Below, one piece after another: positions 2,396 through 50,400 of a stretch of DNA of 64,000 bases. The position numbers and the translations under genes are program-made. The notes beneath the pieces were generated by a model. It did not search any database, was not told where the DNA came from, and was given only the letters and a program-made list of their open reading frames with translations. The first letter of the stretch is position 1. Each line of letters opens with the position of its first letter. This DNA is from Leucoraja ocellata (taxonomy: Eukaryota): the NCBI GenBank assembly GCA_036785375.1, contig JAWMAR010000424.1:620001-684000 (forward strand), in the 5' to 3' direction.

Positions 2396-2716
2396 CTAAA
2401 CCACAAATGAGTTTATCCGCAACTGCGATCACAATTGAGAATGGGACGGAGAAATCGGTGAAATGTGACAGTACTGCGTTTTACCCCTTGGCCATTCAGA
2501 TAAGCTGGCTCAAGAAATCAAAGAGTGGAGAACAGAAGATCCTAGACCACATTTGCACAGGATCTCCTGTTAAAAATGAGGATGGAACCTACAATGTGTC
2601 GAGCCACATGAGGCTACGTCCAACACTCCAGGATGATGGTAACACTTATGTCTGCATAGTGAGACATAGATCACTTGGTAAGGACACAGAGTTGACCACC
2701 CATCTGACTGTCAGAG
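2396..2716 (+). CDS. Ig-superfamily receptor gene, exon a: extracellular C1-set Ig domain (upstream leader/V exons lie outside the window)
   Basis: Acceptor ttatcttcacag|CT and donor AGAG|gtaagt, phase 1-1, 321 nt. Motifs VKCDSTAFYPLAIQISW, KNEDGTYNVSS and YVCIVRHRSL. Both cysteines and the Trp are present. Sequons NGT and NVS. Confidence 0.9.
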
Positions 2717-5164: not shown

Positions 5165-5820
5165 TGAAAAAGCTACTTATCTTAACTACTAAACCAGGTT
5201 CGCTTCTTAATAAACAGACACCACACAAACGGTTTGGTAGACCAGTTCAAAACTTTACTTAGCATCGGCCGATGGAAGGGAGGGAGAACTCCAGTCAAGT
5301 GACCAACACAGACACTTGACTGTCCTCAGTCACCTTCCCTGAACAACAGAATTACATTGCTTTAAATAGGTTTTTTGTCCCCTTATCACATTCCACAGAC
5401 ATTAGTCATGGTCAGAAGTACTGGAAAAGGTTTCCACAGAATGCATCACATCAAACCTTTTTTTTACATGGTACAAGATATACTAAAAACATTGTCCATT
5501 TGTTTTATCTCCAAATAGACCACCCTTGCTCTGGTCGCTGCTTCCTCTGTCATTTGGTCCCTCATAAACATAGGTTATTTGTTTACAAAGATGTGACTGT
5601 TTATTTCTCTCTTCCTTTATCGCCTCCTCCCCATAAACATTGGTTTATGGCATCTCCCTGTGAAGATATCTCTCTAGCTCCTTCACTTGGGAGACAATGT
5701 TATCTCACACACCCCTGCAACCTGAGGCAAGCCTAATTTGAGACTAAATATAAGCTGTAAGCTAGCCCAGAAACCAATTTAATATCTTCTTATATTCTTT
5801 ACTAAAATTCAGCTTCATCA
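5165..5820 (-). repeat. ERV 3' LTR
   Basis: Direct repeat of 11679-12334. On the - strand it is preceded by the purine tract AAAAGGATGGAA (5821-5832) and contains TATTTAAA and AGTAAA. Confidence 0.95.
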
Positions 5821-11678: not shown

Positions 11679-12334
11679 TGAAAAAGCTACTTATCTTAAC
11701 TACTAAACCAGGTTCGCTTCTTAATAAACAGACACCACACAAACGGTTTGGTAGACCAGTTCAAAACTTTACTTAGCATCGGCCGATGGAAGGGAGGGAG
11801 AACTCCAGTCAAGTGACCAACACAGACACTTGACTGTCCTCAGTCACCTTCCCTGAACAACAGAATTACATTGCTTTAAATAGGTTTTTTGTCCCCTTAT
11901 CACATTCCACAGACATTAGTCATGGTCAGAAGTACTGGAAAAGGTTTCCACAGAATGCATCACATCAAACCTTTTTTTTACATGGTACAAGATATACTAA
12001 AAACATTGTCCATTTGTTTTATCTCCAAATAGACCACCCTTGCTCTGGTCGCTGCTTCCTCTGTCATTTGGTCCCTCATAAACATAGGTTATTTGTTTAC
12101 AAAGATGCAACTGTTTATTTCTCTCTTCCTTTATCGCCTCCTCCCCATAAACATTGGTTTATGGCATCTCCCTGTGAAGATATCTCTCTAGCTCCTTCAC
12201 TTGGGAGACAATGTTATCTCACACACCCCTGCAACCTGAGGCAAGCCTAATTTGAGACTAAATATAAGCTGTAAGCTAGCCCAGAAACCAATTTAATATC
12301 TTCTTATATTCTTTACTAAAATTCAGCTTCATCA
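11679..12334 (-). repeat. ERV 5' LTR
   Basis: 656 bp. By eye it differs from the other LTR only at 12108-12109 (CA vs TG). Confidence 0.95.
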
Positions 12335-13473: not shown

Positions 13474-13590
13474 AGCCAGAAGTCGTTGTGCCAGGGGGAA
13501 TAATAACAGGCTGTGTTATTGGTAGTATACTGCTGTGTTCCTTGTTTATGATCGGAGGATTTTTAATGTATCTAAAGATTTTAAAAAAAG
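13474..13590 (+). CDS. Ig receptor exon b: transmembrane segment
   Basis: Acceptor ttttttcttacag|AG and donor AAAG|gtaaag, phase 1-1, 117 nt. Encodes EPEVVVPGGIITGCVIGSILLCSLFMIGGFLMYLKILKK, a hydrophobic helix followed by K..KK. Confidence 0.88.
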
Positions 13591-15155: not shown

Positions 15156-15569
15156 TACCTCCTAAAGTGTCTGAAATCGCCAAACCACCACACATTATAC
15201 ATTTGGAAGAAACTGTTCTGACTTGTCACATTTCAGGATATAAGCCTGCAGACATTTCGCTTTGTTGTTTTCTACAAAGAGAGGGAGGAAATAAAAGTGA
15301 GATTTTCCAATGGAGTTCTGCACCTGGCCACTCGCAAGCACCTGAAGCTATTGACCAGCAAAGTCTTATTTGCAACGGCGACTCTCCAAAGGAGTCTTTC
15401 AACATTGAGATGACAGCTGCTACACATGATGGCCGCTCCAGTGCAAAATGCAAAATTATATTCATCCCTGATATTGATAATGATGACGGAACTATCCTCT
15501 TTCTTCACGTTTTACATAGCACTCTTGGAAAGCCTATTATTAAATCCATCCAATTGAATGTTGAAGGAA
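15156..15569 (+). CDS. Ig receptor exon c: post-TM C1-like domain 1 (long insert; C-strand Trp and F-strand Cys absent)
   Basis: Acceptor tttttctag|TA and donor GGAA|gtaagt, phase 1-1, 414 nt. VPPKVSEI...LTCHISGYKP...FIPDIDNDDGTILFLHVLHSTL. Confidence 0.85.
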
Positions 15570-15582
15570 GTAAGTATACACT

Positions 15583-15895
15583 GCGGCACACGGTGCAGCA
15601 GGTAGAGCTGCTGCCTCACAGGGACAGAGGCTCGGAGTTTGACCTGGGGTGTTGTCTGTGTGGAGTTTGCACGTTCTCCTTGTGACTGCTGGGTTTTCTC
15701 CCGGTGCTCCAGTTTCATCCCATATTCCAAAGACGTGCGGGTTTGTAGGTTAATTGGCCTCTGTAAATTGCCCCTAGTGTTAAGGGAGTGGTTGAAAAAG
15801 TGGGATGACATAGAACTAGTGTGAACAGATGATCGATGGTTGCTGTGGGTTTTTTTTAATTGAAGGGTCTGTTTGCATGCTGTGTTTCTAAAGTA
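15583..15895 (+). mobile_element. tRNA-derived SINE with CR1-like tail (HE1/V-SINE-like); further copies near 13110-13390(-), 16030-16255(-), 17660-17870, 26418-26720, 33908-34210 and 59555-59770(-)
   Basis: A/B-box-like head ggcacacggtgcagcaggtagagctgctgcctcac, core gtctgtgtggagtttgcacgttctcc and tail gggcctgtttcc...ctaaa. Confidence 0.75.
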
Positions 15896-16901
15896 GACTA
15901 AATGATGTCAAGAAACCAATGATCTTTATTTGTTTATAAAAGCGTATTACTAAATCAATACCTCAGGTAAAATGTAGTTTAGCTGAGAGATACAGCATGG
16001 AAACAGGCGCTTCTACCCACCAAGTCCACACCAAACATCGATCACCTGTTCCACATTATTCCACTTCCGCACCTATTCCCTACACGCTGAGGGCATTAAC
16101 CTACAAACCCACACGTCTTTGGGATGTGGGAGGAAACTCACGCGGTCATAGGGAGAATGTGCAAACTCCACACAGACAGCACCGGAGGTCAGGATCGAAC
16201 CTGGATGTCCGGCTCTATGAGACAGCAGCTCTACCAGCTACGCCACTGTTCCGCCCAAAATTACTCTGTTTTAAATATATACTTTTAAGTTAGCCGTCCT
16301 TTCTGTAATTATATCTCACGAATAATCCAAAATACTATGCAGTAAATCTTACTAGTGTGTGTGGGTCTGTTAAAATGGCTGGATTGCAGTTACATCTCAA
16401 CTGTATTTGAGTATAGGAGCAGGGAGGTTCTACTGCAGTTGGACAAGGTCTTGGTGATACCACACCTGGAGTATTGCGTACAGTTTTGGTCTCCAAATCT
16501 GAGGAAAGGCATTCTTGCCATAGAGGGAGTGCAGAGAAGGTTCACCAGACTGATTCCTGGGATGTCAGGACTTTCATATATCTTTGGAATTCTCTGCCAC
16601 AGAAGGTAGTTGAGGCCAGTTCATTGGCTATATTTAAGAGGGAGTTAGATGTGGCCCTTGTGGCTAAGGGGATCAAGGGGTGTGGAGAGAAGGCAGGTAC
16701 AGGATACTGAGTTGGATGATCAGCCATGATCATATTGAATGGCGGTGCAGGCTCGAAGGGCCGAATGGCCTACTCCTGCACCTATTTTCTATGTTTCTAT
16801 GTAACTGCACTAGACAAAATAAACTCAGCAAGTTTTATACAATGCACTGTAAATTCATAAACCATGAAATCTCTCCTTTTTCCTTTCTCAAATAAAAACA
16901 G

Positions 16902-17288
16902 TTGCACCAAAGATGACGAATATTCTTGCTCCGCCTCACATTATTCATGAAGAGATGATTGTTCTGTCTTGTCCTATTGATGGATTTAAGCCAAGACCAC
17001 TGGCCATCACTTGGTACCAAAAACCCAACAGAGCAAACGAGAACATGGGATTGAAAGAAATTGTGAGAACTGTGTTTGGAAGCGAGGATGTTATTGCTGA
17101 TTGGGATCTGCCTAAATATTCCCACTCTCTAAATGAGTTGACCAATGAAGACAATACTTATAGTGTCACCAGTTTCCTAAAATTTACACCGACGATTCTC
17201 GCAGACCATGAAACAGTGTATGTTTGTGAAGTTGAACATCCAGCTACGGCTTCAAATACACAACGGCAGGTCAAACTTGACGTAAAAG
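16902..17288 (+). CDS. Ig receptor exon d: post-TM C1-set domain 2 (both cysteines kept)
   Basis: Pyrimidine tract plus aaaacag|TT acceptor and donor AAAG|gtacag, phase 1-1, 387 nt. LSCPIDGFKPRPLAITW...NEDNTYSVTSFL...YVCEVEHPA. Confidence 0.9.
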
Positions 17289-17869
17289 GTACAGTCTGAA
17301 TTTCTCTATTCCTATTATGGATTGTAAGATACAATAGGAGCAGGCTCTTCCCCTCAGCACGTACTCCTGCAGTCTGGAATGTGCCAGTGGCCATCTGCTG
17401 GGAGACCAACAAGTTTCGGGCAGACCAAATAATGTATTTTACCAAATCTATATGCAGGTTAGACCAGGCATCAGGATAATAATTCAGGTGAATGTGCTAC
17501 CAATGTCCACTCTGGCTTAATATCAACACTTTTTAATTACCCTTTCAAAGTAGGTGGTAACGTGGACAGTGAAGATGAATATCAAAAATCACATTTGGCT
17601 TTTGATCATCTGTGCAAGTGGGCTATGGAATAGCCAATGGAGTTTAATGCAGATCAATATAGTTTGTATGTTCTCCTTGTGACTGTGTGGGTTTTCTCTG
17701 GGTGCTCTGGTCTCCTACACTTCAAAGACCTACAGATGTGTAGGTTAGTTGGCTTTTGTAAATTGTAAATTGCCCCGTGTGGAGGATTGTGGTAGAGTAT
17801 GGGGCAATCGATGGTCGGCATGGACTCTGTTGGCTGAAGAGCCGGTTTCACTCTGTATCTCCAAAGTCT

Positions 17870-18590
17870 AAAGTGCCAGGTGCTGCATATTTGGTAAATC
17901 AAACCAAGGCAGAACCTTACAATGAATGGTAGGACCCTGGGAAATGTTGTAGAACAGAGGGACCTGGGAGTGCAGGTGCGTTGTTCCCTGAAAGTGGTGT
18001 CGAAGGTAGATAGGGTAATAAAGAAGGATTTTGGTACATTGGCCTTCATTTGTCATGGTATTGAGGATAGAAGTATGTTACAGTTGTACAAGATGTTGGC
18101 GAGGCAACATTTAGTTGTTCAGTTTTGGTCACCCTGCTATAGGAAGGATGTCACTAAGCTTCAAGGAGTGAAGAGAAGATGTATGTGGATGTTGCTGGGA
18201 CTTGAGGGCCTGAGCAAGAGGGAGAGTTTGAGCAGGTTAGAACTTTTTTTTGGAGCGCAGGTTGGCTGATCTTATAGAGGCGTCTTTTACACAGGATAGG
18301 GGAATCAACAAACTGGTGGCATAGGTTTAAAGTGAAAGGGGCAAGATTTAGTAGAAATCTGAGGGGAAATGTTTTCAATCAGAAGGTATTGGGTGTGTGG
18401 AAAGAGTGCCAGAGGAGGTAGTTGAGACGGGTACTATAACAACATTTTAAAGACTTGAACAGATAGATACATGGATCGGAAAGGTTTAAAGGGATATAAG
18501 CCAAATGTCTATAAATGGGATGAGCTGAGATGGGGCATCTTGGTTGTGGACAAGCTTGACTGAAGGGCCTATTTCCGTGTTATATGACTC
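17870..18590 (+). mobile_element. Old CR1 3' fragment
   Basis: Decayed RT C-terminus (QRDLGV...LQLYKML...QFWSP) and a CR1 tail. Confidence 0.75.
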
Positions 18591-18653
18591 GAACAAAAAT
18601 CCCTGCAGAATGTCTGAACCTTTCACAGCTTTTTCCTTCCCCTTTCTCTTCAG

Positions 18654-18965
18654 CAATCCCAGAATGTGAAGACATTAAGTTGTCGCCGGAAATCCCAATT
18701 GCAGAAGAATTTGCTGTTTCAACCTGCAGGATACATTCCTTCTTCCCAAAGAACATTACAGTTACTTGGAAAATGGATAACAAACTAATGCAGGAAACTA
18801 AAGCTGAAAATGAACCCACCTTGGGCCCCGATGGTCGTTATAGCTTCACAGATCTTCTGAAGTTCATCCCTGCGCGAGAAGACCTTGGAAAGATATTAAC
18901 CTGCAAATTCCAGCATGAAAGTATCATCGGCACAAAAAGAACTGACCATAAATTGGATAAACTGA
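18654..18965 (+). CDS. Ig receptor exon e: post-TM C1-set domain 3 (both cysteines kept)
   Basis: Acceptor tttctcttcag|CA and donor CTGA|gtaagg, phase 1-1, 312 nt. STCRIHSFFPKNITVTW...GPDGRYSFTDLL...LTCKFQHES. Confidence 0.9.
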
Positions 18966-19436
18966 GTAAGGGAATGTTTTATTTCTTTTTTATTTTGAAA
19001 GATTGAATATCGGAGTCCATTGTTGTTCATTTACCTAGAGTGATCGAGCATGGAAACAGGCCCTTCGGCCCAACTTGCCCACACCAGCCAACATGTCCCA
19101 GCTACACTAGTCCACCCCTGCTTGCATTTGGTCCATATCCCTCCAAACCTGTCCTAACCATGTACCTGTTTAACTGTTTCTTAAACATTGGGATAGTCCC
19201 AGCCTCGACTACCTCCTCTGGCAGCTCGTTCCACACACCCACCACCCTTTGTGTGAAAACGTAACCCCACAGATTTCTATCAAATCTTTTCCCCTTCACC
19301 TTCAACCTATGTCCTCTGGTCCTCGATTCACCTAATCTGGGCAAGAGACTCTGTGCATCTACCTGATCTATTCCTCTCATAATTTTATACACCTATATAA
19401 GATCACCCTTCACCGCCCCTGCACTTCAAGGTCCAA

Positions 19437-21955
19437 GTTATATAAAGGAGGATATATAGGAGGATAGTCAAATAAGAATATAAAGCAGGATAGTAAAAGC
19501 TTATTTAGGTATGTGAAGAGGAAAAAAGTACTTAAGACCAAAGTTGGACCCTTGAAGACTGAAAAAGGTGAATTTATTATGGGGAACAAGGAAATGGCAG
19601 ATGAGTTGAACAGGTACTTTGGATCCATCTTCACTAAGGAGGACACAAACAATCTTCCTGATATACTAGTGGCCAGAGGATTTGGAGTGACGGAGGAACT
19701 GAAGGAAATCCACATTAGGCAGGAAATGGTGTTGGGTAGACTGATGGGACTGAAGGCTGATAAATCCCCAGGGCCTGATGGTCTGCATCCCAGGGTACTT
19801 AAGGGAGTGGCTCTACAAATCGTGGATGCATGGTGATAATTTTCCAATGTTCTATAGATTCAGGATCAGTTCCTGTGGATTGGAGGGTAGCTAATGTTAT
19901 CCCACTTTTTAAGAAAGGAGGGAGAGGGAAAACAGGAAATTATAGGCCAGTTAGCCTGACATCGGTGGTGGGGAAGATGCTGGAGTCAAATATAAAAAAT
20001 GAAATACCGGCACATTTGGATAGCAGTAACAGAATCGGTCTGAGTCAGCATGGATTTACGAAGGCTTGACTAATGTTCTGGAATTTTTTGAGGATGTAAC
20101 TTGGAAAATGGACCAGTGGATGTAGTGTACCTGGACTTTCAGAAAGCATTTGATAAGGTCCCACATAGGAGATTAGTGGGTAAAATTAGGGCACATCGTA
20201 TTGGGGGTAGAGTGCTGACATGGATAGAAAATTGGTTGGCAGAGAGGAAACAAAGAGTAGGGATTAACGGGTCTCTTTAAGAATGGCAGGCAATGACTAG
20301 TGGAGTTCCGCAAGGTTCAGTGCTGAGATCGCAGCTATTTACAATTTCCATCAATGATTTAGATGAAGGGATTCAAAGTAACATTAGCAACTTTGCAGAT
20401 GACCCAAAGCTGGGTGGCAGTGTGAACTGTGAGTAGGATGCTATGAGAATGCAGGGTGACTTGGACGGAGTGGGCAGATGCAGATGAAGTTTAATGCGGA
20501 TAAATGGACGGAGTGGGCAGATGCATGGCAGATGAAGTTTAATGCGGATAAATGTGAGGTTATCCACTTTGGTAGCAAAAACAGGAAGGCCGATTATTAT
20601 CTAAATGGCGTCAAGTTGGGAAAAGGGGAAGTACAATGGGATCTGGGGGTCCTTGTTCATCAGTCAATGAAAGTAAGCATGCAGGCACAGAAGGCAGTGA
20701 AGAAAGTGAATTGCATGTTGGCCTTTATAACAAGAGGATTTGAGTATAGGAGCAAAGAGGTCCTTCTGCAGTTGTATAGGGCCCTAGTGCAACCACACCT
20801 GGAGTATTGTGTGCAGTTTTGGTCCCCTAATTTGAGGAAGGACATTCTTGCTATTGAGGGAGTGCAGCATAGGTTTACAAGGTTAATTCCCGGGATGGCA
20901 GGACTGTCATATGCTGAGAGAATGGAGCTGCTGGGCTTGTACACTCTGGAGTTTAGAAGGATGAGAGGATATCTTATTGAAACATATAAGATTGTTAAGG
21001 GTTTGGACACACTAGAGGCAGGAAACATGTTCCCGATGTTGGGGGAGTCCAGAACCAGGGGCCACAGTGACAATTAAACACTTTTTTTCACAGAGAGTTG
21101 TGAGTTTGTGGAATTCTCTGCCTCGGTGGATACTTTGGATAAGTTCTCTGGATACGGTGAATAGGTTCTCGGGATACTTTCAAGAGAGCTAGATAGGGCT
21201 CTTAAAAATATCGGAGTCGGGGGATATGGGGAGGGCAGGAACGGGGTAGTGATTGGGGATGATCAGCCATGATCACATTAAATGGCGGTGCTGGCTCGAA
21301 GGGCTGAATGGCCTACTCCTGCACCTATTGTCTGAGTTCCAATCTTAAATTGCAAGAATTAGTGACAAACACAAAGTGCTGGAGGAACTCAGTGGGGTGG
21401 GCAACACCTCTGGAGAAAATTGATGGGTGATGTTTTGGGTCGGGACCCATCTTCAGACCGTTCTTCAGTCCCAATCCAAAACGTCATCTATCCATGTTCT
21501 CCAGAGATGCTACCTGACCTGCTGAGTTATTACTGAATACTCTCTAGAATTTAGGAGATTGAGAGGGGATCTTATAGAAACTTACTAAATTCTTAAGGGG
21601 TTAGACAGGCTAGATGCAGGAAGATTGTTCCCGATGTTAGGGAAGTCCAGGACAAGGGGTCACAGCTTAAGGATAAGGGGGAAATCCTTTAAAACCGAGA
21701 TGAGAAGAACTTTTTTCACACAGAGAGTGGTGAATCTCTGGAACTCTCTGCCACAGAGGGTAGTTGAGGCCAGTTCATTGGCTATATTTAAGAGGGAGTT
21801 AGATGTGGCCCTTGTGGCTAAGGGGATCAGGGGGTATGGAGAGAAGGCAGGTACGGGATACTGAGTTGGATGATCAGCCATGATCATATTGAATGGCGGT
21901 GCAGGCTCGAAGGGCCGAATGGCCTACTCCTGCACCTATTTTCTATGTTTCTATG
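19437..21955 (+). mobile_element. CR1 LINE ORF2 remnants (5'-truncated copy 19437-21335 plus a second 3' end 21535-21955)
   Basis: KSPGPDGLHP, NYRPVSLTS, DFQKAFDKV, FADD and HLEYCVQFWSP. The second piece ends in a (ttctatgt)n tail. Confidence 0.9.
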
Positions 21956-22214
21956 TTACTGCCATTTAATTTGGCCATTCAGCCTATCAAGTCTACTTCA
22001 TCATCGATTCATAGTTGACCTATCTTTCCCCCTCAACCCCCTTCTCCTGCCTTCTCCCCATAACCCCCGACACCCGTACTAATCACCCCTGTCAACCCCC
22101 ACCTTAAAAATATCCATTGATTTGGCTTCCACAGCCTTTTGTGGCAATGAATTCCACAGATTTCACACACTCTGACTAAATAAATTCTTCCTCATCTCCT
22201 TTGAAAAGATACAT

Positions 22215-22429
22215 TGAAGTGTGATGATAATCCCGAAATGAAGGCGAGGAGCCCGGTGTTTCGGGAAGCATTTTATTTGCTGTCCTTCTCCTGACCAGAC
22301 AAGTCGGCAAGAGAGAGATTGCACCTAAATGTCCTTTATCCCTGTAGCTAAGGGCCGCCCCCGGACTCATCCATGCCCGTGCCGAGGAGTTCCATAGTGG
22401 AAATGGCCCGACTCTTGGGAGCCGCCACA
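22215..22429 (-). mobile_element. 215-bp solo LTR inserted in a CR1 fragment
   Basis: TG...CA ends, 4-bp TSD ACAT (22211-14 and 22430-33), AATAAA on the - strand. The flanks rejoin as CR1. Confidence 0.7.
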
Positions 22430-22605
22430 ACATCATTTTATTCTGAGGCTGTGGCCTGTGGTCGGAGAATCTCCCACTAGTAGAAACATCCTCTCCACAT
22501 TCACTCCATGTCGATTTTATGTCTATCTTTGGTATAAACCAGCATCTGCATTTGCTTTTGTATTACATTCTATCCAAGAGTTAATGTTGTTTTGTTTTTT
22601 TGCAG

Positions 22606-22929
22606 CGTCTCCACCGTTATTGGACGACATGAAAATTGAACCACAAAATCCCAAACCAGGAGATTTGACAACATTCTCGTGCCATGCACGTGGCTTCTAT
22701 CCAAAGGATGTTAAGTTCATGTGGTTCAAAAATGAGAAGATGATTGATGATAATGAGATCACTTTTACTGACCCAGAGATCGATAAAAACACTGGCTTCT
22801 TCTGCTGTGAAAGTCGGTGGAAGTATAAGATTTTACCTGATGACCATCAAATCAATTTCAAAGTTGAGGCTCTTCACTTTCAAACTGTTCATCGACCCGC
22901 TAAGGTCTTTCACACCTTACACCTTGGAG
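22606..22929 (+). CDS. Ig receptor exon f: post-TM C1-like domain 4 (F-strand Cys replaced by Val)
   Basis: Acceptor ttttttgcag|CG and donor GGAG|gtatgt, phase 1-1, 324 nt. FSCHARGFYPKDVKFMWFKN...TGFFCCESRW...FKVEALH. Confidence 0.9.
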
Positions 22930-23419
22930 GTATGTCATAGTCATACAGCCTGGAAACGGGCCCAGTTGCTCAACTTGTCCACACCGACCAACATGTCCCA
23001 TCTACACTAGTACCACCTGCTTACGTTTGGCCCATATCTCACTAAACCTGTCCTATCCAAGTACCTACCTAATTGTATACACCCACCACTCTTTGTGTGA
23101 GGAAGTTACCCCTCAGATTCATATTAAACCTTTCCCCCATTTACCTTGAATCTATGTCCCCTGGTTCTTGATTCCCTTTCTCTGGGCAAGCGACTGAGTC
23201 TACCTGCTCTATTCCTCTCATGATCTTGTCATGCGTTCATCATCTATTTTGTGGCTTGGACTAGTTTGGTTTCCCCGCCTTTTTCTTCTTCCTGTCTGAA
23301 GAAAGGTCCCAACTGTATATGATATTATGGAGACATATATAAAGTCGACAGTCAGAACCTTATTCCCCAGGGTGGAAATGCAAAGAATGCAAGGCATAGC
23401 TATGAATGTAGACACCAAG

Positions 23420-24730
23420 AAACTGTGGATAAGCTTTTCCCACTGAGAGTAGAGAAGATTCAAACTAGGGGGCATGACTTGAGAATTAAGGGACTGAAGT
23501 TTAGGGGTACCATGAGGGGGAACTTCTTTACTCAGAGAGTGGTGGCTGTGTGGAATGAGCTTCCAGTGGAAGTGGTGGAGGCAGGTTTGATTTTATCATT
23601 TAAAAATAAATTTGATAGATATATGGATGGGAAAGGAATGGAGGGTTATGGTCTGAGTGCAGGTAGATGGGACTAGGGGAGAATAAGTGTTCGGCATGGA
23701 CTAGAAGGGCCGAGATGGCCGATTAGGAAAAGGGGAGATGCAACGAGACCTGGGTGTCATGGTACACCAGTCATTGAAAGTAGGCATGCAGGTGCAGCAG
23801 GCAGTGAAGAAGGCGAATGGTATGTTAGCATTCATAACATAAGGACTTGAGTGTAGGAGCAGGGAGGTTCTACTGCAGTTGTACAGGGTCTTACTGAGAT
23901 CACACCTGGAGTATTGCGTACAGTTTTGGTCTCCTAATCTGAGGAAGGACATTCTTGCCATAGAGGGAGTGCAGAGAAGGTTCACCAGGCTGATTCCTGG
24001 GATGTCAGGACTTTCATATGAAGAGAGACTGGATAGATTTGGCTTGTACTCGCTAGAATTTAGAAGATTGGGGGGGGGGATCTTATAGAAACTTACAAAA
24101 ACAAGATGCAGGAAGATTGTTCCCGATGTTGGGGAAGTCCAGAACAAGGGGTCACAGTTTAAGGATAAGGGGGAAATCTTTTAGGACCAAGATGAGTGGT
24201 GAATCTTTGGAATTCTCTGCCACAGAATGTAGTTGAGGCCAGTTCATGGGCTATATTTAAGAGGGATGTGGCCCTTGTGGCTAAAGGGATCAGGGGGTAT
24301 GGAGAGAAGGCAAGTACAGGATACTGAGTTGGATGATCAGCCATGATCATGACTTCAGAATTAAGGGACAGAAGTTTAGGGGTAACATGAGGGGGAACTT
24401 CTTTACTCAGAGAGTGGTAGCGGTGTGGAATGAGCTTCCAGTGGAAGTGGTGTTGGCAGGTTCATTGGTATCATTTAAAAATAAATTGGATAAGCATATG
24501 GATGAGAAGGGAATGGAGGGTTATGGTATGAGTGCAGGCAGGTGGGACTAAGGGAAAAAAGTTGTTCGGCACGGACTTGTAGGGCCGAGATGGCCTGTTT
24601 CCGTGCTGTAATTGTTATATGGTTATATGATCATATTGAATGGCGGTGCAGGCTCGAAGGGCCGAATGGCCTACTGCTGCACCTATTTTCTTTGTTTCTA
24701 TGTTTCCGTGCTGTAATGGTTATATGGTTA
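23420..24730 (+). mobile_element. Nested 3' ends of two CR1 subfamilies (B containing A containing B)
   Basis: Alternating blocks with (ggttatat)n and (ttctatgt)n tails. The interrupted sequences resume at about 24630 and about 24701. Confidence 0.75.
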
Positions 24731-24780
24731 AGTCAATGTTCATACAACCATCCTACCAACAATTAGTGAGCATTCCTGAC

Positions 24781-25707
24781 CAAAGATCCTATAGCGGAGC
24801 AAGATAGGCTACTCCTGCGAAATGCGATGGGCTGACGTGTAGTACGCTATGGAGGCGATCCTGGGCATTTTTCCCCGCCCATTTTAGTAACCGGAGCCTA
24901 CCTGACCCGACCCGACCCGACTCGCAGTGTTATCAACGTTGTGGGGGAACAGTTTGTGTGTGTGATATAGGGTTAGATTCATAATTCTGTTAGTTCATAC
25001 TTCTGTTCATTCTTGTTAAAGAATTAAATGTTTATAAACACACAAACATGAATGTGATATAAATGTATATACTCATATAACACACAGAATTATAGTTCTT
25101 CTGATTTTTATATCCAATAATGAACTTTATTTCAGACTAGACAAGGGACATTAAATAAGAAACATTGTAAACCTCCCCGCAACTTCACACACACTAAGCC
25201 CTAACCCCCCCCCCCCCCCCGGCACTCCCTCGCCTCCCCCCACACTACAATGTCTCCCCCCCCGCCTATGCTGTAGTCCCTTAACCCACCAGCCCTCAGC
25301 CCCCAACCCCACATCTCTCCCCATGCTTTCTGCACCCCGGCCCCTACCCCACCTCTCTCTCCCAAAGATCTTATACCGGAGCTCCGCTATAAGATCTTTG
25401 CTCTCTCCCTCCCCCGGCCCTACTTAACCTTCCTGCGCCACCACTACCCCACTTGCACTACTCCCTTCCTCTCTTCCAGCTGCCCCGGACCGCACACCCC
25501 CCCTCTCCCCGGGCCGTGCACCCCTTCTCCCCACCCAAGTCAAAGACTTGCGAAGATACGGGAGCGGAGGTGGAAGCAAAGATCCGATCTTTGGCCGGAA
25601 GCAAGATGGCGGAACAAGATGGCGTAGGCTGGTTGCTAAAATGAGTCCTATAATCACCCATGAATCTGCCCAGGAGTAGGCCATCTTGCTCTGCTATAAG
25701 ATATTTG
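24781..25707. mobile_element. Non-autonomous P-superfamily-like DNA transposon (MITE)
   Basis: TIRs CAAAGATCCTATAGCGGAGCAAGAT and ATCTTGCTCTGCTATAAGATATTTG, CA...TG termini, and an 8-bp TSD ttcctgac/gtcctgac (7/8). Confidence 0.8.
25363..25400. mobile_element. 38-bp TIR-TIR remnant of the same family (probable excision footprint)
   Basis: CAAAGATCTTATACCGGAGCTCCGCTATAAGATCTTTG, flanked by a perfect 8-bp TSD CTCTCTCC (25355-62 and 25401-08). Confidence 0.8.
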
Positions 25708-26013
25708 GTCCTGACCTACTCTCTACCATCAGACTGTAATTGATCAGACTTTACTGTACTTTATATTGCACTAAACTATATTCAAGTTACTCCCTGTATC
25801 CTGTATCTACACCGAGGATGGCTCGAATGCAATCACGTATAGCCTGTCCACTGACTGGAGAGCACACATACTTCAGTACACGTGACAACAAAACTAAAAT
25901 AATTGCCAGTTTGAGTGCATTTGTTCTGGGAAAAGGCAGGTTTGTTTACCGCAACTGCACTATAATAAAATTGAGCAATATCTAAACTTTGTCTGTTTTA
26001 TTTTTCCAAATAG

Positions 26014-26325
26014 GAACTCCAATGCTTTCTGATATCATTCTTGAGCCAGAAACTCCATTCTATGGCCAGCCTCTAGTTCTTAAATGCAACGTGACCAATT
26101 TTTCTCAGAATGGAATCTCCACCAATTGGCTAATGGACAATGAACCTATTTTGAAAGGAGTCAGGAATACAGACCCCAGGGAGGAACAAGATGGAATTTA
26201 TCAGTTGTGCTCCTGTCTGGACCTGACACCCACAGCTTTACATTACAACAAGAAACTTGTCTTTGAGGTGAAAAATGAAGTTACATCTGAAGTTATTACC
26301 AAACACTTATATTTACCACTTCCAG
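26014..26325 (+). CDS. Ig receptor exon g: post-TM C1-like domain 5 (F-strand Cys replaced by Phe)
   Basis: Acceptor tttttccaaatag|GA and donor CCAG|gtaagt, phase 1-1, 312 nt. LKCNVTNFSQNGISTNW...QDGIYQLCSCL...LVFEVKN. Confidence 0.88.
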
Positions 26326-26925
26326 GTAAGTGAAACTGGTGGGAAGCCTTAACTTAAAAAAATTGTTAACAAGGATGGAATTGATCAGTCGGGTACTAAG
26401 GTTTTAAAAGTAAACTTTGGGTGGCGCAGAGGTGGAGTTGTGGACTTGCAACACCAGACACTCGGATTCGATCCTGACCTCGGGTGCTATCTATGCCGAG
26501 TTTGCATGTTCTCCCCTTGACCGAGTGGGCTTCCACCGGGTGCTCTGGTTTCCTCCCACATCCCAAAGAGCTGCAGGTTTGGAGGTTAATTGGCTTTGGT
26601 AAAATTGTAAATTGCCCCTTGTGTGTAGGTTAGGGCTAGTGAATGGGCTGATCGCTAGTCGGCTTACTCAGTGGGCCGAAGGCCCTGTTTCCACTATGTA
26701 TCTCCAAAGTCTAAAGTAAAAGTTAATTGACCTCTGTAAATTGTCCCCTACTGTATGGGGAGTGGATGAGAAAATGGGATAACATAGAACTAGTGTGAAC
26801 ATGTTAGCGATGGCCAGCGTGGATTAGCTAGGCCTAAGAGCCCAGCTTGCAGTATTTCTGAACTAAACTATCCACTGTCGAAAGTGAGACCATCTCAATA
26901 TGTGCATATTCTACTCTATTTTAAG

Positions 26926-27233
26926 GTAATTCCCCCAATGTGTCTGAAATCAACCGCAAAGCTCAAGAGGAAAGCACAGTGGCATCTTTCATGGTTTCGT
27001 TGACTGATTATGTACCTCAGAAAATTGAGGTGAAGTGGTTCAAAGGAGAACAACGCTATGTAGGGCCTGTCCATAATAGTCAACCTCGGGTTGCCACCAC
27101 TGGCCTCTTCTCTTCAACAACAGAAATACAATTTATTCCAGAACCATCTGATCATGACTTGGAAATCAGATGTGAGATATTTCATCTGGAAACAAAGAAA
27201 AGGATTTACCGAAAGTGTCGCTTAACATTTTGA
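26926..27233 (+). CDS. Ig receptor exon h: post-TM C1-like domain 6 (B-strand Cys replaced by Val), ends in TGA
   Basis: Acceptor ctctattttaag|GT, phase 1. SFMVSLTDYVPQKIEVKWFKG...TGLFSSTTEI.FIP...IRCEIFH. The TGA at 27231-33 is followed by G|gtaaat. Confidence 0.85.
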
Positions 27234-36094: not shown

Positions 36095-39000
36095 AAGAAA
36101 GAGATTAGTTAAAACAAATGTAGGTCCCTTGCAGTCAGAAACAGGTGAGTTGATCATGGGGAACAAGGATATGGAGGACCAATTGAATAACTACTTTGTT
36201 TCTGTCTTCACTAAGGAAGACATAAATAATCTGCCGGAAATAGCAGGGGACCGCGGGTCAAAGGAGTTGGAGGAATTAGGTTAGTCGGGAAGTGGTGTTA
36301 GGTAAATTGAATGGATTAAAGGCCGATAAATCCCCGGGGCCAGATAGGCTGCATCCCAGAGTACTTAAGGAAGTAGCTCCAGAAATAGTGGATGCATTAG
36401 TAATAATCTTTCAAAACTCTTTAGATTCTGGAGTAGTTCCTGAGGATTGGCGGGTAGCAAACGTAAACCCACTTTTTAAAAAGGGAGGGAGAGAGAAAAT
36501 GGGGAATTACAGACCAGTTAGTCTAACATCGGTAGTGGGGAAACTGCTAGAGTCAGTTATTAAAGATGGGATAGCAGCACATTTGGAAAGTGGTGAAATC
36601 ATTGGACAAAGTCAGCATGGATTTACGAAAGGTAAATCATGTCTGACGAATCTTATAGAATTTTTCGAGGATGTAACTAGTAGCGTGGATAGGGGAGAAC
36701 CAGTGGATGTGGTGTATCTAATTTCCAGAAGGCTTTCGACAAGGTCCCACATAAGAGATTAGTACAGGTGCACAACCTTTTATCCGAAAGCCATGGGACC
36801 AGACACCTTTCGTAATTCAGAATTTGTCGGTCTTCGGAATGGAAATTTTTTTGCATAGATTTTAATGGCTGGCTCAGTGGTAGAGTGCTCGGCTCATATC
36901 CGCAAGGTCGCGAGTTTGCGCCTTGATCCCGGCAGAAGAAGTTGGAGCGGGGCTGGGCTGGGCTGCTGCTGGCTGTGGGTCTCTGGGATCTCTGTGCTTG
37001 CGGTGGGCCTGGTGGTCGACGTCCAATTGGTCCTGACGTCTCCGGTGATTGCACTGAACTGCAGCCATCGCCGTCGTGAAGACAGTACAAAGCCCCCACG
37101 CCGGTGCAATGAGCGGGGAGAGGGGAGGGAAGGGGTCACACACATGGCCGGGAAGCAGAGGGGTGTAGGTGGGGTGAAATTGAAGGGAGCGACAATCGTG
37201 TATCGTGTCTACCGTGGGAACTTTTTAACTCAGCGGGCAGGTAGCAGCAGATTGTCAATTATTAACCCTCCCGCGCAATATACTCTCACCTTCTCTTTTA
37301 TGAATGGGGATTTAGTTCCCCTTTCTTCGAGGACCGACCGGAGGTTCCGCTGTCACCTCTGCGGGCTGCCCTCGGTGAACGTCCTGTCTCCCTGTCCCTG
37401 GGATAGTAGGGGGCGATCAAACAGCACAATACCCCCCTCCCCCTCCAACTCCAGAGGAATCCGCTCCCCGATGGGCCGCTATGGCGACAAGTGGCAGTTC
37501 GCCCACAGCCCAAGCTGCGCGACCCCAAGAACAAGAAGTACCTTCCACACTATCAGCTTCTGCCCATACACTGCGTGTTCCTCTGGAGTTGGAACGGGGC
37601 TGGGCTGGAGTTGCTGATCTGGGATCTCCGTGCTTGCAGTGGGCCTGGGGGTCGGTGTCCCGATGAGAGGGCGCAGCTCGGGCTGTGGGCGAACTGCCAC
37701 TTGTCGCCGTAGCGGCCCATCGGGGAGTGGCTTCTGGTGGTCCTGACGTCTCCGGCCAGTTTGCAGTTTTCCTCTGGAGTTGGAACGGGGCTGGGCTGCT
37801 GCTGGCTGTGGGTCTCTGGGTTCTCTGTGGTTGCAGTGGGCCTGGGGGTCAGTGTCCCATTGGTCCTGACGTCTCCGGTGACTGCACTGCGCTGCTAGAA
37901 TCGCCGACGTGAAGACAGTGCAAAGCCCCCGCGCCGGTGCAATGAGCGGGGAGCTGGAGAGGGGAGGGAAGGGGTCACACACATGGCCGGGAAGCAGAGG
38001 GGTGTAGGTGGGGTGAAACTGAAGGGAGCGACAATTTGCTGCTGCCTGCACGCTGAGTTAAAATGTTCCCACGCAAGACTCACGATACACTGTGTATCGT
38101 GTCTACCGTGGGAACTTTTTAACTCAGCGGGCAGGTAGCAGCATATTGTCAATTATTAACCCTCCCGCGCAATATACCCTCACCTCTTTTATGAATGGGG
38201 ATTTAGTTCCCCTTTCTTCGAGGACCGACTGGAGGTTCCGCTGTCACCTCTGCGGGTCGCCCTCGGTGAACGTTTTCAAGGACCTTTCTTCAAGGACCGA
38301 AAAAATGTCGCTATTCGGAGGTTTTCGTTATTTGGATCGTCGGATAAAAGGTTGTGCACCTGTATACAAACTTAAAGCACAAGGCATTGGGGGTTCAGTA
38401 TTGATGTGGATAGAGAACTGGCTGGCAAACAGTAAGCAAAGAGTAGGAGTAAACGGGTCCTTTTCACAATGGCGGGCAGTGACTAGTGGGGTACTGCAAG
38501 GCTCAGTGCTGGGACCCCAGCTAGTTACAATATATATTAATGATCTGGATGAGGGAATTGAATGCAATATCTCCCAGTTTGCGGATGACACTAAGCTGGG
38601 GGGCAGTGTTAGCTGTGAGGAGGATGCTAGGAGACTGCAAGGTGACTTGGATAGGCTGGGTGAGTGGGCAAATGTTTGGCAGATGCAGTATAATGTGGAT
38701 AAATGTGAGGTTATCCATTTTGGTGGCAAAAACAGGAAAGCTGACTTTTATCTAAATGGTGGCCGATTAGGAAAAGGGGAGATGCAGCGAGACCTGGGTG
38801 TCATGGTACACCAGTCATTGAAAGTAGGCATGCAGGTGCAGCAGGCAGTGAAGAAAGCGTATGGTATGTTAGCTTTCATAGCAAAAGGATTTGAGTATAG
38901 GAGCAGGGAGGTTCTACTGCAGTTGTACAGGGTCTTGGTGAAACCACATCTGGAGTATTGCGTACAGTTTTGGTCTCCAAATCTGAGGAAGGACATTATT

Positions 39001-39510
39001 GCCATAGAGGGAGTGCAGAGAATGTTCACCAGACTGATTCCTGGGATGTCAGGACTGTCTTATGAGGAAAGACTGGATAGACTTGGTTTATACTCTCTAG
39101 AATTTAGGAGATTGAGAGGGGATCTTATAGAAACTTACAAAATTCTTAAGGGGTTGGACAGGCTAGATGCAGGAAGATTGTTCCCGATGTTGGGGAAGTC
39201 CAGGACAAGGGGTCACAGCTTAAGGATAAGGGGGAAATCCTTTAAAACCGAGATGAGAAAAACTTTTTTCACACAGATAGTGGTAAATCTCTGGAACTCT
39301 GCCACAGAGGGTAGATGAGGCCAGTTCATTGGATATATTTGAGGGATTTAGATGTGGCCCTTGTGGCTAAAGGGATCAGAGGGTATGGAGAGAAGGCAGG
39401 TACAGGATACTGAGTTGGATGATCAGCCATGATCATATTGAATGGTGGTGCAGGCTCGAAGGGCCGAATGGCCTACTCCTGCACCTAATTTCTATGTTTC
39501 TATGTTTCTA
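36095..39510 (+). mobile_element. Young CR1 ORF2 (RT), split by a Tc1/mariner-type insertion
   Basis: ORF 36292-36762 and the 3' part of ORF 38092-39318 give RT motifs (SGVLQGSVLGP, FADD). Tail (ttctatgt)n. Confidence 0.92.
36765..38362. mobile_element. Non-autonomous pogo/Tigger-like (Tc1/mariner) element with an internal duplication
   Basis: TIR CAGGTGCACAACCTTTTATCCGA at both ends, TA TSD (36763-64 and 38363-64). An internal block of about 430 bp is duplicated (about 36950-37385 vs 37785-38272). Confidence 0.88.
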
Positions 39511-44472: not shown

Positions 44473-47462
44473 TTGTAATGTTATGACTCTGGCTGAGTTT
44501 GTCAGGGTCAAGAACATTAAAACTGTTGAAACACGAAGGCTTTGTTAATTCCCTTTTGGGGAGGAGAGGTTCGGCCAGTTGGCAGGGTTGACTTGCAGTG
44601 CCACCTAGCGACACGTGTGCACAAGCTGAACTTTCTTATTGTCCCTGGCAAAGTAACAACTCCACTTGGTATTGATGTCTGCCGGGATCTGAGTGATAAG
44701 CTTTGCAGAAGAGGTGCATCAACTTTCCCCTGCCTAAGATTCCACTGAACAAATTCTAGCTCAGTATAAGGTACATTTTGACAACAAGCTTGGAAAGATG
44801 CCACTCAAATACTCAATTGTAACCAACCCTGACATAATGCCTGGTAGACTAAAATGCTGGAGAAACTCAGCGGGTGAGGCAGCATCTATGGAGCGAAGGA
44901 AATAGGCCAATTTAAAGGAAGTACTGGATCGGGTGAAGGACATCGACCTTAAACTTAACCCCCGAAAATGCAGGTTTCGTGTCAGAGAAGTAAAGTACAT
45001 AGGACACGTTTTTGCTAGTGATGGACCCAAACTAGATCCTTCCAAGACCAGTTCCCAAGGATGTAACCAGCTTACAAAGATTCCTTGGCATGGTGAATTG
45101 CCTGGGTAAGTTCATTCTGAACTTCAGCGAACTGTCAGCACCACTGCGGCAGCTGACACACAGAGACGTAAGCTGGTCCTGGTACACATTTGTCTAAAAC
45201 AGCAGTTATCCTGTGCCCTGACTCTGGCTTACTTTGATGTAAAACTGCTGGTAATGCGATGCCTCCCAGTACGGACTGGGTGCTGCCTGTCATCAGAGTG
45301 ACAGTGACAACAAACCTGTGGCATATGCCTCTAGCACGATGTCTGACACCGAGCAATGCTATGCTCAAATCGAAAAGGAACTACTGCCATGGACTTTGCC
45401 AACATAAAATTCAAAGACTTTATTTTTGGAAAGACTGTAGCTGTTGAAACAGACCACCGGTCCCTAATCAGCATTCTAAACAAGCCGATCCATGCTGTAG
45501 ATTGGTTTATGCATGCAACCAATCATATATAGGTTAGCATCACTAACCCCGCCTTACTGTATCATTTATATTCACACCCACTTCCTATGCTACGCAGTGA
45601 CAACTAACATGCTACTGTGCTGTTAAGTCTGTATGTAGATTAAAGATGATCTTAAATTACATGCCGTGTATATGTCTGTCTTATCTACACATGCTGCTCC
45701 CGCTCATCTGCAGCGGATGATGATGCAGCTTCAAAGGTACGATATCAACCTGGTTTACACGGCAGGCAAAGCCATACACCTAGCCGACACACTATCCAGA
45801 GCCCCATGCAAGACCAGCGAGCAACAAATAGTCAACGACACGTACATTGTGATGATGGTGTTGTACCTTCCCACAGAGTGCCTGGACAACTTGGCTGCCC
45901 AGACAGCAGCCGATGACACCCTACAGTCCCTGTCCTCGACTATCCGGCATGGCTGGCTGGATAAACAGCACAAGGTACCTGTTGCCATTCACCCGTTCTT
46001 CCCGGTCGGTGACGAGCTAGTGCTCCAGGACGGTGTGATTGTCAAAGGACACAAGGCGGTCATTCCAACTGCTGTACGAGACAAGTATTTCGACTTGGAG
46101 CACATGGGACATCCCGGGATCGCGGCAACCATCCCTTCGAGCCAAGAGCATGTTTATCTGGCCCGGAATGACCGAGTTTATACGAAAGAAAGTGGAAGCC
46201 TGCGTGATCTGCAATAGCCCGGCACCCCATCAACCTAAGTAGCCGCTTCTCACTCACCCAGTCCCTGCGCTACCATGGTCCATACTGGCACCAGACATTT
46301 TCGAATGGCATGATAAACAATACCTGGTTCTAGTTGACTCGTACTCGGGCTGGTTTGGGATTGACTTGCTTCCCAGCCCCACTGCAGCAGTGGTGGTTCA
46401 CAAACTAGCGCGACACTTTTCAAGTCATGGGGCGCCCGCAAAACTCCTGTCGGACAACGGTAGCCAGTTCACCAGCCAGTGCTTCAAGAATTTTGCCCAA
46501 CGATGGGACTTTCATCACATTACCAGCAGTCCCGAATACCCTCGATCCAACAGGCTGGCCGAGAGGGCAGTCTGGAGTGCCAAGCAGCTGCCAGCATCTG
46601 CAGTTCCTTCTTGAACACAGCTGATGGAAAGATCTCATTTTGTAAAGTCCGGTGTTTACCTGGACTCGCTCAACTTGATAAACATTGCCCGGGTCAAGTA
46701 GGTCACTCGAGCCGCTGGCAAGGGGTCAAGTTGTAAGGCTTCAAACAGACAAGGGTTACGGATGCCTTGGTACAATCCACAGCCCGGCACCAGAACCACG
46801 CTAGTACATGGTCGACTATGATGGGGGGACTTACCGGCGAAACCATCAACACCTGTAGCAGTGAAGGAACCGCAACCTGTAATCCCGCATCCAGATGTTC
46901 CTGCACTGTGTCACTGTGTGACTAATACTCTCCCACCCCTCACTCCGTAGTCTGCGCCCAGCACGTATCCTGCCTTCTCGCCACCGCCATTGGTGTCCCA
47001 CTCTCCCGTCTCCCCATACCCGTCTTACGGGTGCTCCACCAGCACCCGGTCTCGCAATTCTCGCCAGTGAAGGATGGAGATGCGAGCCTGTATCGTACAT
47101 GCACGGGTCGCATTTGCAAACCACCCCTTAGATATGGGGACTGTGCTTAACCTGCTCCAGTACTGATTTTATCAGACGCCAGTTAAACCTGATTTATTGT
47201 ATTCACAGATATGTATTCGTAGTCATGTTATTTTCTCAAGATGTAGATCTGCTCTACCTAATACTAACACATATGTTATACAACACTCGGATCCAGAATC
47301 CAGTCCGGGTCTCACCTTACAATCACCATATGTTACTAACGTTTTCAGCCACTAGTCATTAATCGGGATGTAGTTACGGTGGTGACTACTTTCAGTGTAA
47401 CTTTACTGTATGCTAATAAACTTGTTGAACCGTTACTTGGTGTGTTCTTTATTAGTTCTACA
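44473..47462 (+). mobile_element. Decayed Gypsy/Ty3 LTR retrotransposon (protease, partial RT, RNase H, integrase, probable 3' LTR 47242-47462)
   Basis: LQRMMMQLQRYDINLVY..GK...ADTLSRA, HMGHPGI...CVICN and LLSDNGSQFTS..F...HITSSPEYPRSN.LAERAV. The terminal segment runs TGTAGA...TCTACA and contains AATAAA. Confidence 0.88.
45496..45689 (+). mobile_element. 194-bp solo LTR inserted in the Gypsy pol
   Basis: TGTAGAT...ATCTACA with a 5-bp TSD CATGC. Removing it restores NKPIHAAPAHLQRM. Confidence 0.85.
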
Positions 47463-47486
47463 ACTAATTTCCATCCTGCACTCAAA

Positions 47487-50400
47487 GCAATGGCAGGAAT
47501 TTCTGGGCATAATCCGGAAGACGCAGGATAATTTCATTCCAAAAAGGAAGAAAGATTCTAAGGGGAGTAGGAGGCAACCGTGGCTGACAAGAGAAGTTAG
47601 GGATAGAATAAAACAAAAAGAAAAGATGTATAACACAGCAAAGAGTAGCCGGAAGCCAGAGGATTGGGAAACTTTCATAGGACAACAGAAGAAAACAAAA
47701 CGGGCAATACAGGCTGAAAAGATGAAGTACGAGGGGAAGCTGGCCAGGAATATAAAGAAGGACAGCAAAAGCTTCTTTAGATATGTTAAGGGAAAAAGAG
47801 TAGCAAAGTCAAATGTGGGTCCCTTGAAGGCAGACACAGGTGAAATTATTATGGGCAACAAGGAAATGGCAGAAGAGTTGAATAGGTACTTCGGATCTGT
47901 CTTCACTAAGGAAGACACAAACAATCTCGCAAATGTACTGGAGGACAGAGGATCTAAGGGGGTAGAGGAACTGAAAGAAATTGTCATTAGGCGAGAAATA
48001 GTATTTGGTAAGCTAATGGGACTGAAGGATGATAAATCCCCTGGGCCTGATGGTCTGCATCCCAAGGTCTTCAGGGAGGTGGCTCTAGAAATAGTGGATG
48101 CATTGGTAATCATTTTCCAATGTTCAATAGATTCAGGATCAGTTCCTGTGGATTGGAGGATAGCTAATGTTATCCCACTATTCAAGAAAGGAGCGAGAGA
48201 GAAAATGGGGAATTACAGACCAGTTAGCCTGACTTCGGTGGTGGGAAAGTTGCTGGAGTCAATTTTTAAAGAGGTAATAATGGGGCATTTGGATAGCAGT
48301 AAAAGGATTAGTCCAAGTCAACGGATTTATGAAAGGCTTGACTAATCTTCTGGAATTTTTTGAGGATGTGACAAGTAAAATGTGACATCCAGTTCTTCTG
48401 GATGAAGGGGAGCCAGTGGATGTAGTGTATCTAGACTTTCAGAAAGCCTTTGATAAGGTCCCGCATGGGAGACTGGTGATTAAAATTAGAGCACATGGTA
48501 GGGTGTTGACATGGAAGTGGTGGAGGCAGGTTCGTTGGTATAATTTAAAAATAAATTGGATAGGCATATGGATGAGAAGGGAATGGAGGGTTATGGTATG
48601 AGTGCAGGCAGGTGGGACTAAGGGAAAAAAGTTGTTCGGCACGGACTTGTAGGGCTGAGATGGCCTGTTTCCGTGCTGTAATTGTTATATGGTTATATGG
48701 TTATTATATGGATAGAAATTCGTGGGCAGAGCGGAAGCAAAGAGTAGGACTGAACGGGTCCTTTTCAGAATAGCAGGCAGTGGCGAGTGGAGTGCCGCAA
48801 GGCTCGGTGTTGGGGCCGCAACTGTTTACCATATATATTAATGATTTGGAAGAGGGAATTAGGAGCAACACTAGCAAGTTTGCGGTTGACACAAAGCTAG
48901 GTAGCAGTGTGAACTGTGAAGAGAATGTTAGGAGGTTGCAGGGTGACCTGGACAGGTTGAATGAGTGGGCAGATGCGTGGCAGATGCAGTATAATATAGA
49001 TAAATGTGAGGTTATCCATTCACCATCAATAGCAGTGCAGTGGAGTCTGTGAAAAGCACCAAGTTCCTGGGAGTGCACATCACAGATGAGCAGACATGGT
49101 CTACCAACACCATCTCCCTAGTCAAGAAAGCACAGCAACGCCTCCACTTCCTTCGACGGATGAGGAGAGCCGACCTCCCCCCTTCTGCCCTCACCACTTT
49201 TTACAGGGGTGCCATTGAGAGCATTCTTACCAGCAGTCTCTCAGTCTGGTATGGCAGTTGCTCTGCTGCTGACCAGAAGGCACTACAGAGAGTGGTGAGG
49301 ACAGCGGAGAAGATCACCAGATCACCCCAACCAGCAATCCAGGACCTATACCCATCTCACTGTCGCAAGAGAGCAACCAATATCATCAAAGACACCACCC
49401 ACCCAGCACACAAACTGTTCACCCTCCTACCATCCGGCAAGCGCTACCGCAGCATGCGGAGCAAAACCACCAGATTCAAAAACAGTTTTTTGCCTCAGGC
49501 CATCAGACTACTCAACACACTCAAGAAAATTCCATGAACATTACACAAACAAAGACCAACTGACTGTCAAAATAACTTTAACTCAATGTCTGCAGTATGC
49601 TATTTGCACTTTTCTATATTGCACCTTTATTATTGCACCTTAATAACATACCTTAAAATTTTACTACACTCTGGCACACTGTGAATATTTTATATAATGT
49701 ATATGTCCATTGTCTATCTTTATTGGTATATAGTCTGTCTGTGTTATAAATATTACTTGCACATTTGGAGTATGGGGAAACGCAATTTCAATCCTCTGTG
49801 TAACTACTTGTTGCATTATTTGAATTGACAATAAAGTTTACTTTGACTTTGACTTTGAGTTTGGCTGCAAAAACAAGGGAGCAGATTATTATCTCAATGG
49901 GGTTAGGTTAGGTAAGGGGGAGGTGAAGCGAGACCTGAGCGTCCTTGTACACCGGTCACTGAAAGTTGGCTTACAGGTACAGCAGGCAGTGAAGAAAGCT
50001 AATGGAATATTAGTCTTCATAACAAGAGGATTTCAGTATAGGAGTAAAGAGGTTCTTCTGCAGTTGGATAGGGCTCTGGTGAGACCACATCTGGAGTATT
50101 GTGTACAGTTTTGGTCTCCTAATTTGAGGAAGGACATCCTTGTGATTGAGGCAGCACAGCGTAGGTTCACAAGATTGATCCCGGGGATGGCGGGACTGTA
50201 ATATAAGGAAAGATTGAAAAGACTAGACTTGTATTCACTGGAGTTTTGAGGGATGAGGGGGATCTTATAGAAACATATAAAATTATAAAAGGACTGGACA
50301 AGCTAGATGCAGGAAAAATGTTCATAATGTTGGGTGAGTCCAGAACCAGGGGCCACAGTCTTAGAATAAAGGGGGGGGGGGGGGTCATTTAAGACTGAGG

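Follow-up and report, generated by a model that had tools for sequence, protein, structure and literature searches.

C1-set immunoglobulin (Ig) domains are normally extracellular and pinned by a disulfide bond, and they are a hallmark of antibodies, T-cell receptors and the major histocompatibility complex. What, then, are six Ig exons doing 3' of the transmembrane (TM) exon of a skate gene, and why do four of them encode domains that lack one cysteine of the canonical pair? The locus lies in 64,000 nucleotides of Leucoraja ocellata DNA (contig JAWMAR010000424.1, here C424, positions 620,001 to 684,000; this whole stretch is the window below, with positions counted from its first letter). By its sequence the gene is a B7-H6 (NCR3LG1)-like type I single-pass receptor, with exons in the order leader-V-C1-TM-c-d-e-f-g-h. 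Our answer, to which we give a probability of roughly 0.7, is that the six post-membrane domains are likely cytosolic and would fold without disulfides, and that c, f, g and h each appear to have anciently swapped one canonical Cys for a hydrophobic residue, with an outcome common to the family from chimaera to reptiles.

The preliminary description of this DNA stated that four of the six post-TM domains lack one canonical Cys while d and e are intact, and codon positions confirm it. On the plus strand, domain c (15156..15569) keeps its B-strand Cys (15224) and has Leu in place of the F-strand Cys (15503); the C1-set domain f (22606..22929) keeps the B Cys (22680) and has Val at the F position (22863), and g (26014..26325), also C1-set, keeps the B Cys (26085) and has Phe at the F position (26262). 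In the last C1-set domain, h, whose exon includes the stop codon (26926..27233), it is the B Cys that has become Val (26994), and the F Cys (27171) is intact. The C1-set domains d (16902..17288; Cys at 16970 and 17225) and e (18654..18965; Cys at 18725 and 18902), all on the same strand, retain the pair, as do V and C1. As had been claimed, the frames and splice sites are sound: all six exons are open, with canonical phase-1 AG/GT junctions and the stop codon ending at 27233, and a profile built from these Ig domains found no additional Ig exon in the window. Since the closest sister domains within the protein are c-d, e-g and f-h, the four Cys losses are separate events; V and C1 show no fixed Cys loss, against four in the tail.

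The same contrast is seen in relatives. As a broad control we took the best 150 representative database matches, used the 120 with one internal hydrophobic segment and set aside 34 gapped post-TM domains. Both Cys were kept in 162/171 C1-like domains before the TM segment compared to 242/485 after it, with a nominal Fisher p = 7e-30 that overstates the contrast because the sequences are related. Arrays in which the TM segment is C-terminal keep every pair (P0087, 10/10; P0138, 13/13; P0195, 13/13; 36/36 together). Judged from these alignments, Cys loss tracks the presumed cytosolic side of the membrane.

To place the losses in time, 62 of 67 family sequences were used in a tree of Cys states; P0077, which holds c repeats only, and four proteins of <640 residues were left out, P0077 also from the topology, sequon and Cys-count tallies. 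The F Cys of domain f is absent in all 57 of 57 family members, and the F Cys of c (10/61) and the B Cys of h (11/44) survive only in the subfamily typified by a paralogue on contig C40. The lone remaining Cys is itself conserved (B Cys of f in 56/58 and of g in 42/47; F Cys of h in 42/42), so that the same per-domain pattern, with a lone Cys and a conserved hydrophobic replacement, extends from chimaera to lizards. In 22 reptile proteins the F Cys is absent from 21/21 c-type and 21/22 f-type domains, and both Cys are present in 21/21 e-type domains. Domains d to g share an invariant C-strand Trp, and d is the best-conserved tail domain; in c this Trp has become Cys (15266), a change confined to skates. 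Protein identity to the sawfish orthologue is 64-69% in the tail versus 75-77% in the ectodomain, and to the chimaera orthologue 37-49% versus 48-56%. Comparison with orthologues, which the preliminary description had proposed, indeed found the Cys losses shared across relatives and tail identity little below that of the ectodomain; neutral decay of a pseudogene is not borne out, as the open reading frames (ORFs) are continuous and tail identity is near that of the ectodomain. On the evidence of the aligned sequences, the Cys pattern is a real and ancient feature, and the picture is one of a few ancient remodellings followed by stasis, with no ongoing decay or relaxation. The earlier reading stands in part: loss falls on the post-TM side and scattered Cys are tolerated there, but a general relaxation of the disulfide constraint is not supported, since the losses are few, ancient and fixed, the lone Cys are conserved and d and e are intact.

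Membrane topology was assessed across the family. The leader (C424:614224-614299) and V (C424:616437-616793) exons lie 5' of the window; within it are the extracellular C1-set exon (2396..2716) and the TM exon (13474..13590), both on the plus strand, the latter with 39 codons, phase 1-1 and a basic end, KILKK. A TM segment was found in 61/66 proteins and is hydrophobic in 61/61; the net charge around it averages -0.7 before and +2.2 after, being higher after in 57/61 and equal in 4. We found no second TM segment in the tails of these 61 proteins, where the top 19-residue hydropathy was 1.85 and values >1.6 occurred in 3/61. A leader-like hydrophobic window precedes V in 47/53 homologues having at least 18 residues there. 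Together, the leader, the single TM segment and the charge bias predict a type I membrane form whose six tail domains lie in the cytosol, an arrangement that we regard as very probable.

The tail is also joined to the TM segment in assembled products. In the cluster at 90% identity represented by P0001, which contains the nearest named records (proteins of Leucoraja erinacea and Amblyraja radiata), 5/8 members come from Logan contigs of 3156-3606 nt and are ORFs (944-958 residues) complete from V to h. Because the gene spans about 33 kb, these contigs are probably spliced transcripts joining TM to c. The window exons differ from P0001 by 12 residues, after removal of two boundary artefacts.

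The assignment to B7-H6 rests on several lines. The best PDB sequence match of the V-C1 ectodomain is human B7-H6 (E 2e-28), the ectodomain model superposes on it with a root-mean-square deviation (rmsd) of 2.2-2.4 A and a TM-score of 0.9 by target, and several homologues carry the NCR3LG1 annotation. In the tail, Pfam PF07654 (C1-set) matches d, e, f, g and h at 25-46 bits (cut-off 21); an I-set match occurs only in f, at 13.6 bits against a cut-off of 23.7, and C1-set scores best there. Domain c has no Pfam hit, and its nearest sister in the protein is the C1-set domain d; it is predicted to be an Ig sandwich, V-type domains heading its structural matches (best Z 11.6; 111 residues superposed at rmsd 2.4). 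A single-domain model of c from 5 sequences was of moderate quality (mean predicted local distance difference test score, pLDDT, 68.6), with weak and mixed Ig matches in Foldseek. With a 24-sequence alignment, AlphaFold2 predicted eight Ig sandwiches and one TM helix (246-271) at mean pLDDT 83.6, in no fixed domain arrangement (predicted TM-score 0.42).

Tandem Ig domains inside the cell are known from other proteins. Titin, APEG-1/SPEG and telokin carry such arrays, with one Cys changed to a hydrophobic residue or with the Cys reduced (available parts of PMC1352370 and PMC5766482), and the skate tail resembles them in this respect; these are, however, soluble muscle proteins of the I-set, whereas the skate tail is C1-set and belongs to a membrane receptor. 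In APEG-1, Ile41 and Cys93 stand in place of the disulfide (accessible text of PMC1352370); titin has domains that stay reduced, and it employs conserved Ig Cys as redox switches (accessible text of PMC5766482). The top Foldseek match of our whole model was titin I65-I70 (13% identity, rmsd 47.6), which reflects tandem Ig only. By analogy, the skate tail may work like these titin-type proteins without being a member of them. Ig heavy chains, SIRP and tapasin/TAPBPR share the C1-set with the skate tail, give weak sequence matches to d-f and are its feature neighbours in Atlas, but their extracellular arrays lie before the TM segment and keep the B-F pair, whereas the skate array lies after it. 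The protein c-Answer was considered as a match and ruled out, its cytoplasmic region being short in the part of PMC6871517 available.

Human B7-H6, the ligand of NKp30, is like the skate protein a type I single-pass receptor with a V-C1 ectodomain, but its tail is Gag-homologous with immunoreceptor tyrosine-based inhibitory motif (ITIM), SH2 and SH3 motifs, according to the available portion of PMC7409301, whereas the skate tail consists of six Ig domains. By homology, the skate V-C1 ectodomain may engage an NKp30-type receptor, as the human protein does. The P0001 tail contains no ITIM-like motif and no enzyme domain. Given these absences and its long conservation, the tail could offer cytosolic partners a scaffold or anchor of several domains and so control ligand clustering or surface retention, a role that we put forward tentatively, at somewhat short of even odds. 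As in titin and APEG-1, the Cys that persist (two each in d and e, one each in c, f, g and h) would mostly be reduced and buried in the core, and the scattered extra Cys would be tolerated passengers rather than modification sites.

Several observations weigh against this account. The first concerns sequons, where the preliminary description was right that they occur in e, g (which has two) and h and missed one in c (NKSE). Per 100 residues there are 0.98-1.18 sequons before the TM segment and 0.27-0.84 after it, but relative to shuffles c (1.37), d (1.30) and g (1.35) are near V (1.42) and C1 (1.43), and only e (0.75), f (0.69) and h (0.79) fall below. Conservation of the window's tail sequons among 18 orthologues is weak (3/17, 2/18, 7/13, 5/13 and 2/13), and poor for that of domain e (NITV), while the C1 sequons are found in 14/18 and 7/18 of the same orthologues; sequon evidence on topology is equivocal. 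Secondly, the pair in d (61/62 and 59/61) and e (61/62 and 62/62), about 96-100%, is retained as strictly as in the ectodomain, which is unexpected under plain relaxation. Thirdly, the F Cys of g is present in 9/48 sequences, almost all amphibian, and in 4/23 reptile g-type domains, which suggests regain or retention. Moreover, an E-strand Cys of domain c occurs in 40/53 sequences without the F Cys versus 1/11 with it, and 7/158 stored proteins lack the TM segment, joining C1 directly to c. The preliminary description held Cys loss to be independent support for the topology, and in this it went too far: the sequons are not cleanly split, the E-strand Cys of the AKCK motif may compensate and TM-less isoforms are annotated.

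The TM-less forms, together with the strict pairs of d and e, lead to the alternative that survives best, namely that the protein serves two compartments. The TM exon is symmetrical, so in-frame skipping is possible and would give a secreted V-C1-(Ig)6 form, in which selection would maintain the disulfides of d and e, perhaps along with a B-E bond in c. The 7 proteins are isoforms of the sharks Carcharodon and Cetorhinus, the toad Bombina, the caecilian Microcaecilia and the monitor lizard Varanus, plus two unnamed records, and in Carcharodon the 39-residue TM exon is all that separates X1 from X2. With a secreted form the near-invariance of the d and e Cys would be accounted for, and the sequon excess in c, d and g speaks for such a form as well. 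However, the TM segment is present in all 5 of the 5 full-length Logan products of the gene, and the TM-less records are isoform models in databases. The tail domains also carry 1.2-2.8 non-canonical Cys each, compared to 0.06 in V and 1.36 in C1 (mostly one conserved Cys), although for the secreted ectodomain of human B7-H6 unpaired Cys are detrimental (part of PMC7409301 available). We consider selection in a secreted form unlikely as the source of the pattern, though by no means negligible, and it is compatible with our preferred cytosolic account, given that the membrane form would hold the same domains in the cytosol.

The surplus of scattered tail Cys fits a reducing compartment. The C1 domain (2396-2716) has a conserved third Cys in the motif DHICTG (57/62), so an unpaired Cys also occurs before the membrane. 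The motifs named in the preliminary description (SLCCF and AKCK in c, GFFCCES in f, QLCSCL in g) are all present as claimed.

The conserved member among them is the AKCK Cys of domain c (15449; 39/61), which lies on the E strand adjoining the B Cys and could bond with it across adjacent strands; such a B-E disulfide would, for c, provide the compensating bond that the preliminary description took as evidence against its own inference. This Cys lies two residues before the E-strand Leu anchor and is thus a predicted backbone neighbour of the B Cys (accessible part of PMC12051499). In all other domains most sequences have Ser or Thr at this position (Ser in 64/65 for d), but among c domains with a B Cys and no F Cys it is Cys in 34/39. 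Single losses of the two Cys are nevertheless about as frequent as joint ones (B only 6, E only 5, both 8; among 21 reptile c domains, B only 4 and E only 4), which makes the bond distinctly unlikely, and the anti-correlation of E and F Cys rests essentially on one split of the tree.

Could the unpaired Cys instead be functional redox or palmitoylation sites, as the preliminary description suggested? The tail is likely cytosolic and has more non-canonical Cys than V, and titin offers a precedent for redox function (PMC5766482, in the part available). The SLCC Cys, however, occur in 5/61 and 4/61 sequences, the second replacing the C-strand Trp, and the FCCES Cys of domain f in 8/58 and 10/58, one being Ser in the near-identical P0001. 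In g the extra Cys (26208 and 26214) are found in 7/47 for the first QLCS Cys and 18/47 for the second QLCSCL Cys; the latter corresponds in the alignment to the odd C212 in the C domain of human B7-H6, an extracellular domain, and is for that reason uninformative on compartment. An extra G-strand Cys of h (27216) is present in 10/43. Apart from the AKCK Cys and the second QLCSCL Cys, the named extra Cys thus occur in 4-10 of 47-61 sequences, and the named Cys sit 35 residues or more from the membrane, in predicted beta-strands. With SLCC, FCCES and the first QLCS Cys all lineage-restricted, the extra Cys appear to be mostly of that kind and poor candidates for redox or palmitoylation sites, and we regard such a function as very improbable. 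An extracellular tail (by inverted topology or as a separate gene), which the usual location of C1-set domains and the sequons might favour, or decaying pseudo-exons, can be dismissed as scarcely credible given the leader, the single TM segment, the positive-inside charge and ORFs that run through the TM-c junction on short contigs, and, for decay, the tail's near-ectodomain identity to orthologues and the invariant Trp of d to g.

The Cys pattern itself corroborates the cytosolic-tail architecture without proving it and is no discovery on its own, and any function of the tail is putative. A broader proposal, possible but doubtful, is that the ancestral B7-H6 of jawed vertebrates had a cytosolic C1-set array that early became disulfide-free with a fixed Cys code, persisting from chimaeras to lizards and turtles. 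One exon skip would yield a secreted eight-domain form, a Gag-like tail would have replaced the array in human, and the array would provide a natural killer (NK)-cell ligand with a reverse-signalling or anchoring module not described before. Were this true, the conserved array would suggest that in most jawed vertebrates B7-H6 has an intracellular function still to be studied, natural C1 domains stable without a disulfide would be at hand, and the origin of the human Gag-like tail would become testable as a replacement. In our literature search a cytoplasmic Ig tail in B7-H6 was undescribed, although Flajnik et al. (2012) and Ohta and Flajnik (2015) may describe one.

Tail-bearing homologues occur in rays, sharks, chimaera, reedfish, coelacanth, lungfish, amphibians, squamates and turtles; none from birds or mammals was among the named matches of our word-based, non-exhaustive searches. 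The 22 reptile homologues (P0089, P0092, P0250-P0269) have no assigned d-type domain. The tail has undergone lineage expansions in P0077, P0119, P0122 and P0132; P0077, from the horn shark, has seven c repeats, with neither Cys in any of them. In a spadefoot toad protein and two relatives, about 10 domains follow the TM segment, and their Cys losses vary.

At least three paralogue types are present in the skate genome, among them further paralogues with the same layout. Upstream of the present gene a tandem paralogue (C424:512362-601383; L007-L016) has this layout with the TM-c-d block duplicated; its c domain lacks both Cys, as does a probable seventh tail domain. The third type lies on contig C40 (6320001-6500000; L026-L034, L062-L064), 15 kb from KCNJ11 and tail to tail with it, a gene that we take to neighbour B7-H6 in human. 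Two near-identical copies lie there about 130 kb apart, the second incomplete, through either duplication or an assembly haplotype. The C40 paralogue keeps both Cys in c and h, and in its g the second Cys lies two residues beyond the canonical site, so that the pair is not canonical. On C424, the contig of the present gene, none of the 23 matches was a Kir gene. Three more near-identical V-C1 copies lie at C424:216628, 376680 and 1222262 (L046, L035, L040), one of them followed by a single Cys-less c-like exon. Two near-identical V exons at C276:1083003 and 1416540 (L054, L058) presumably belong to another B7/butyrophilin-like gene. Within the window, the 10.7 kb C1-TM intron contains near-identical segments of about 650 bp at about 5170-5810 and 11680-12330, and many ORF fragments lie at 821-2205, 19410-21080, 38062-39318, 47401-48345 and 51505-52620, which we take by eye to be retroelement-like (reverse transcriptase or endonuclease-like).

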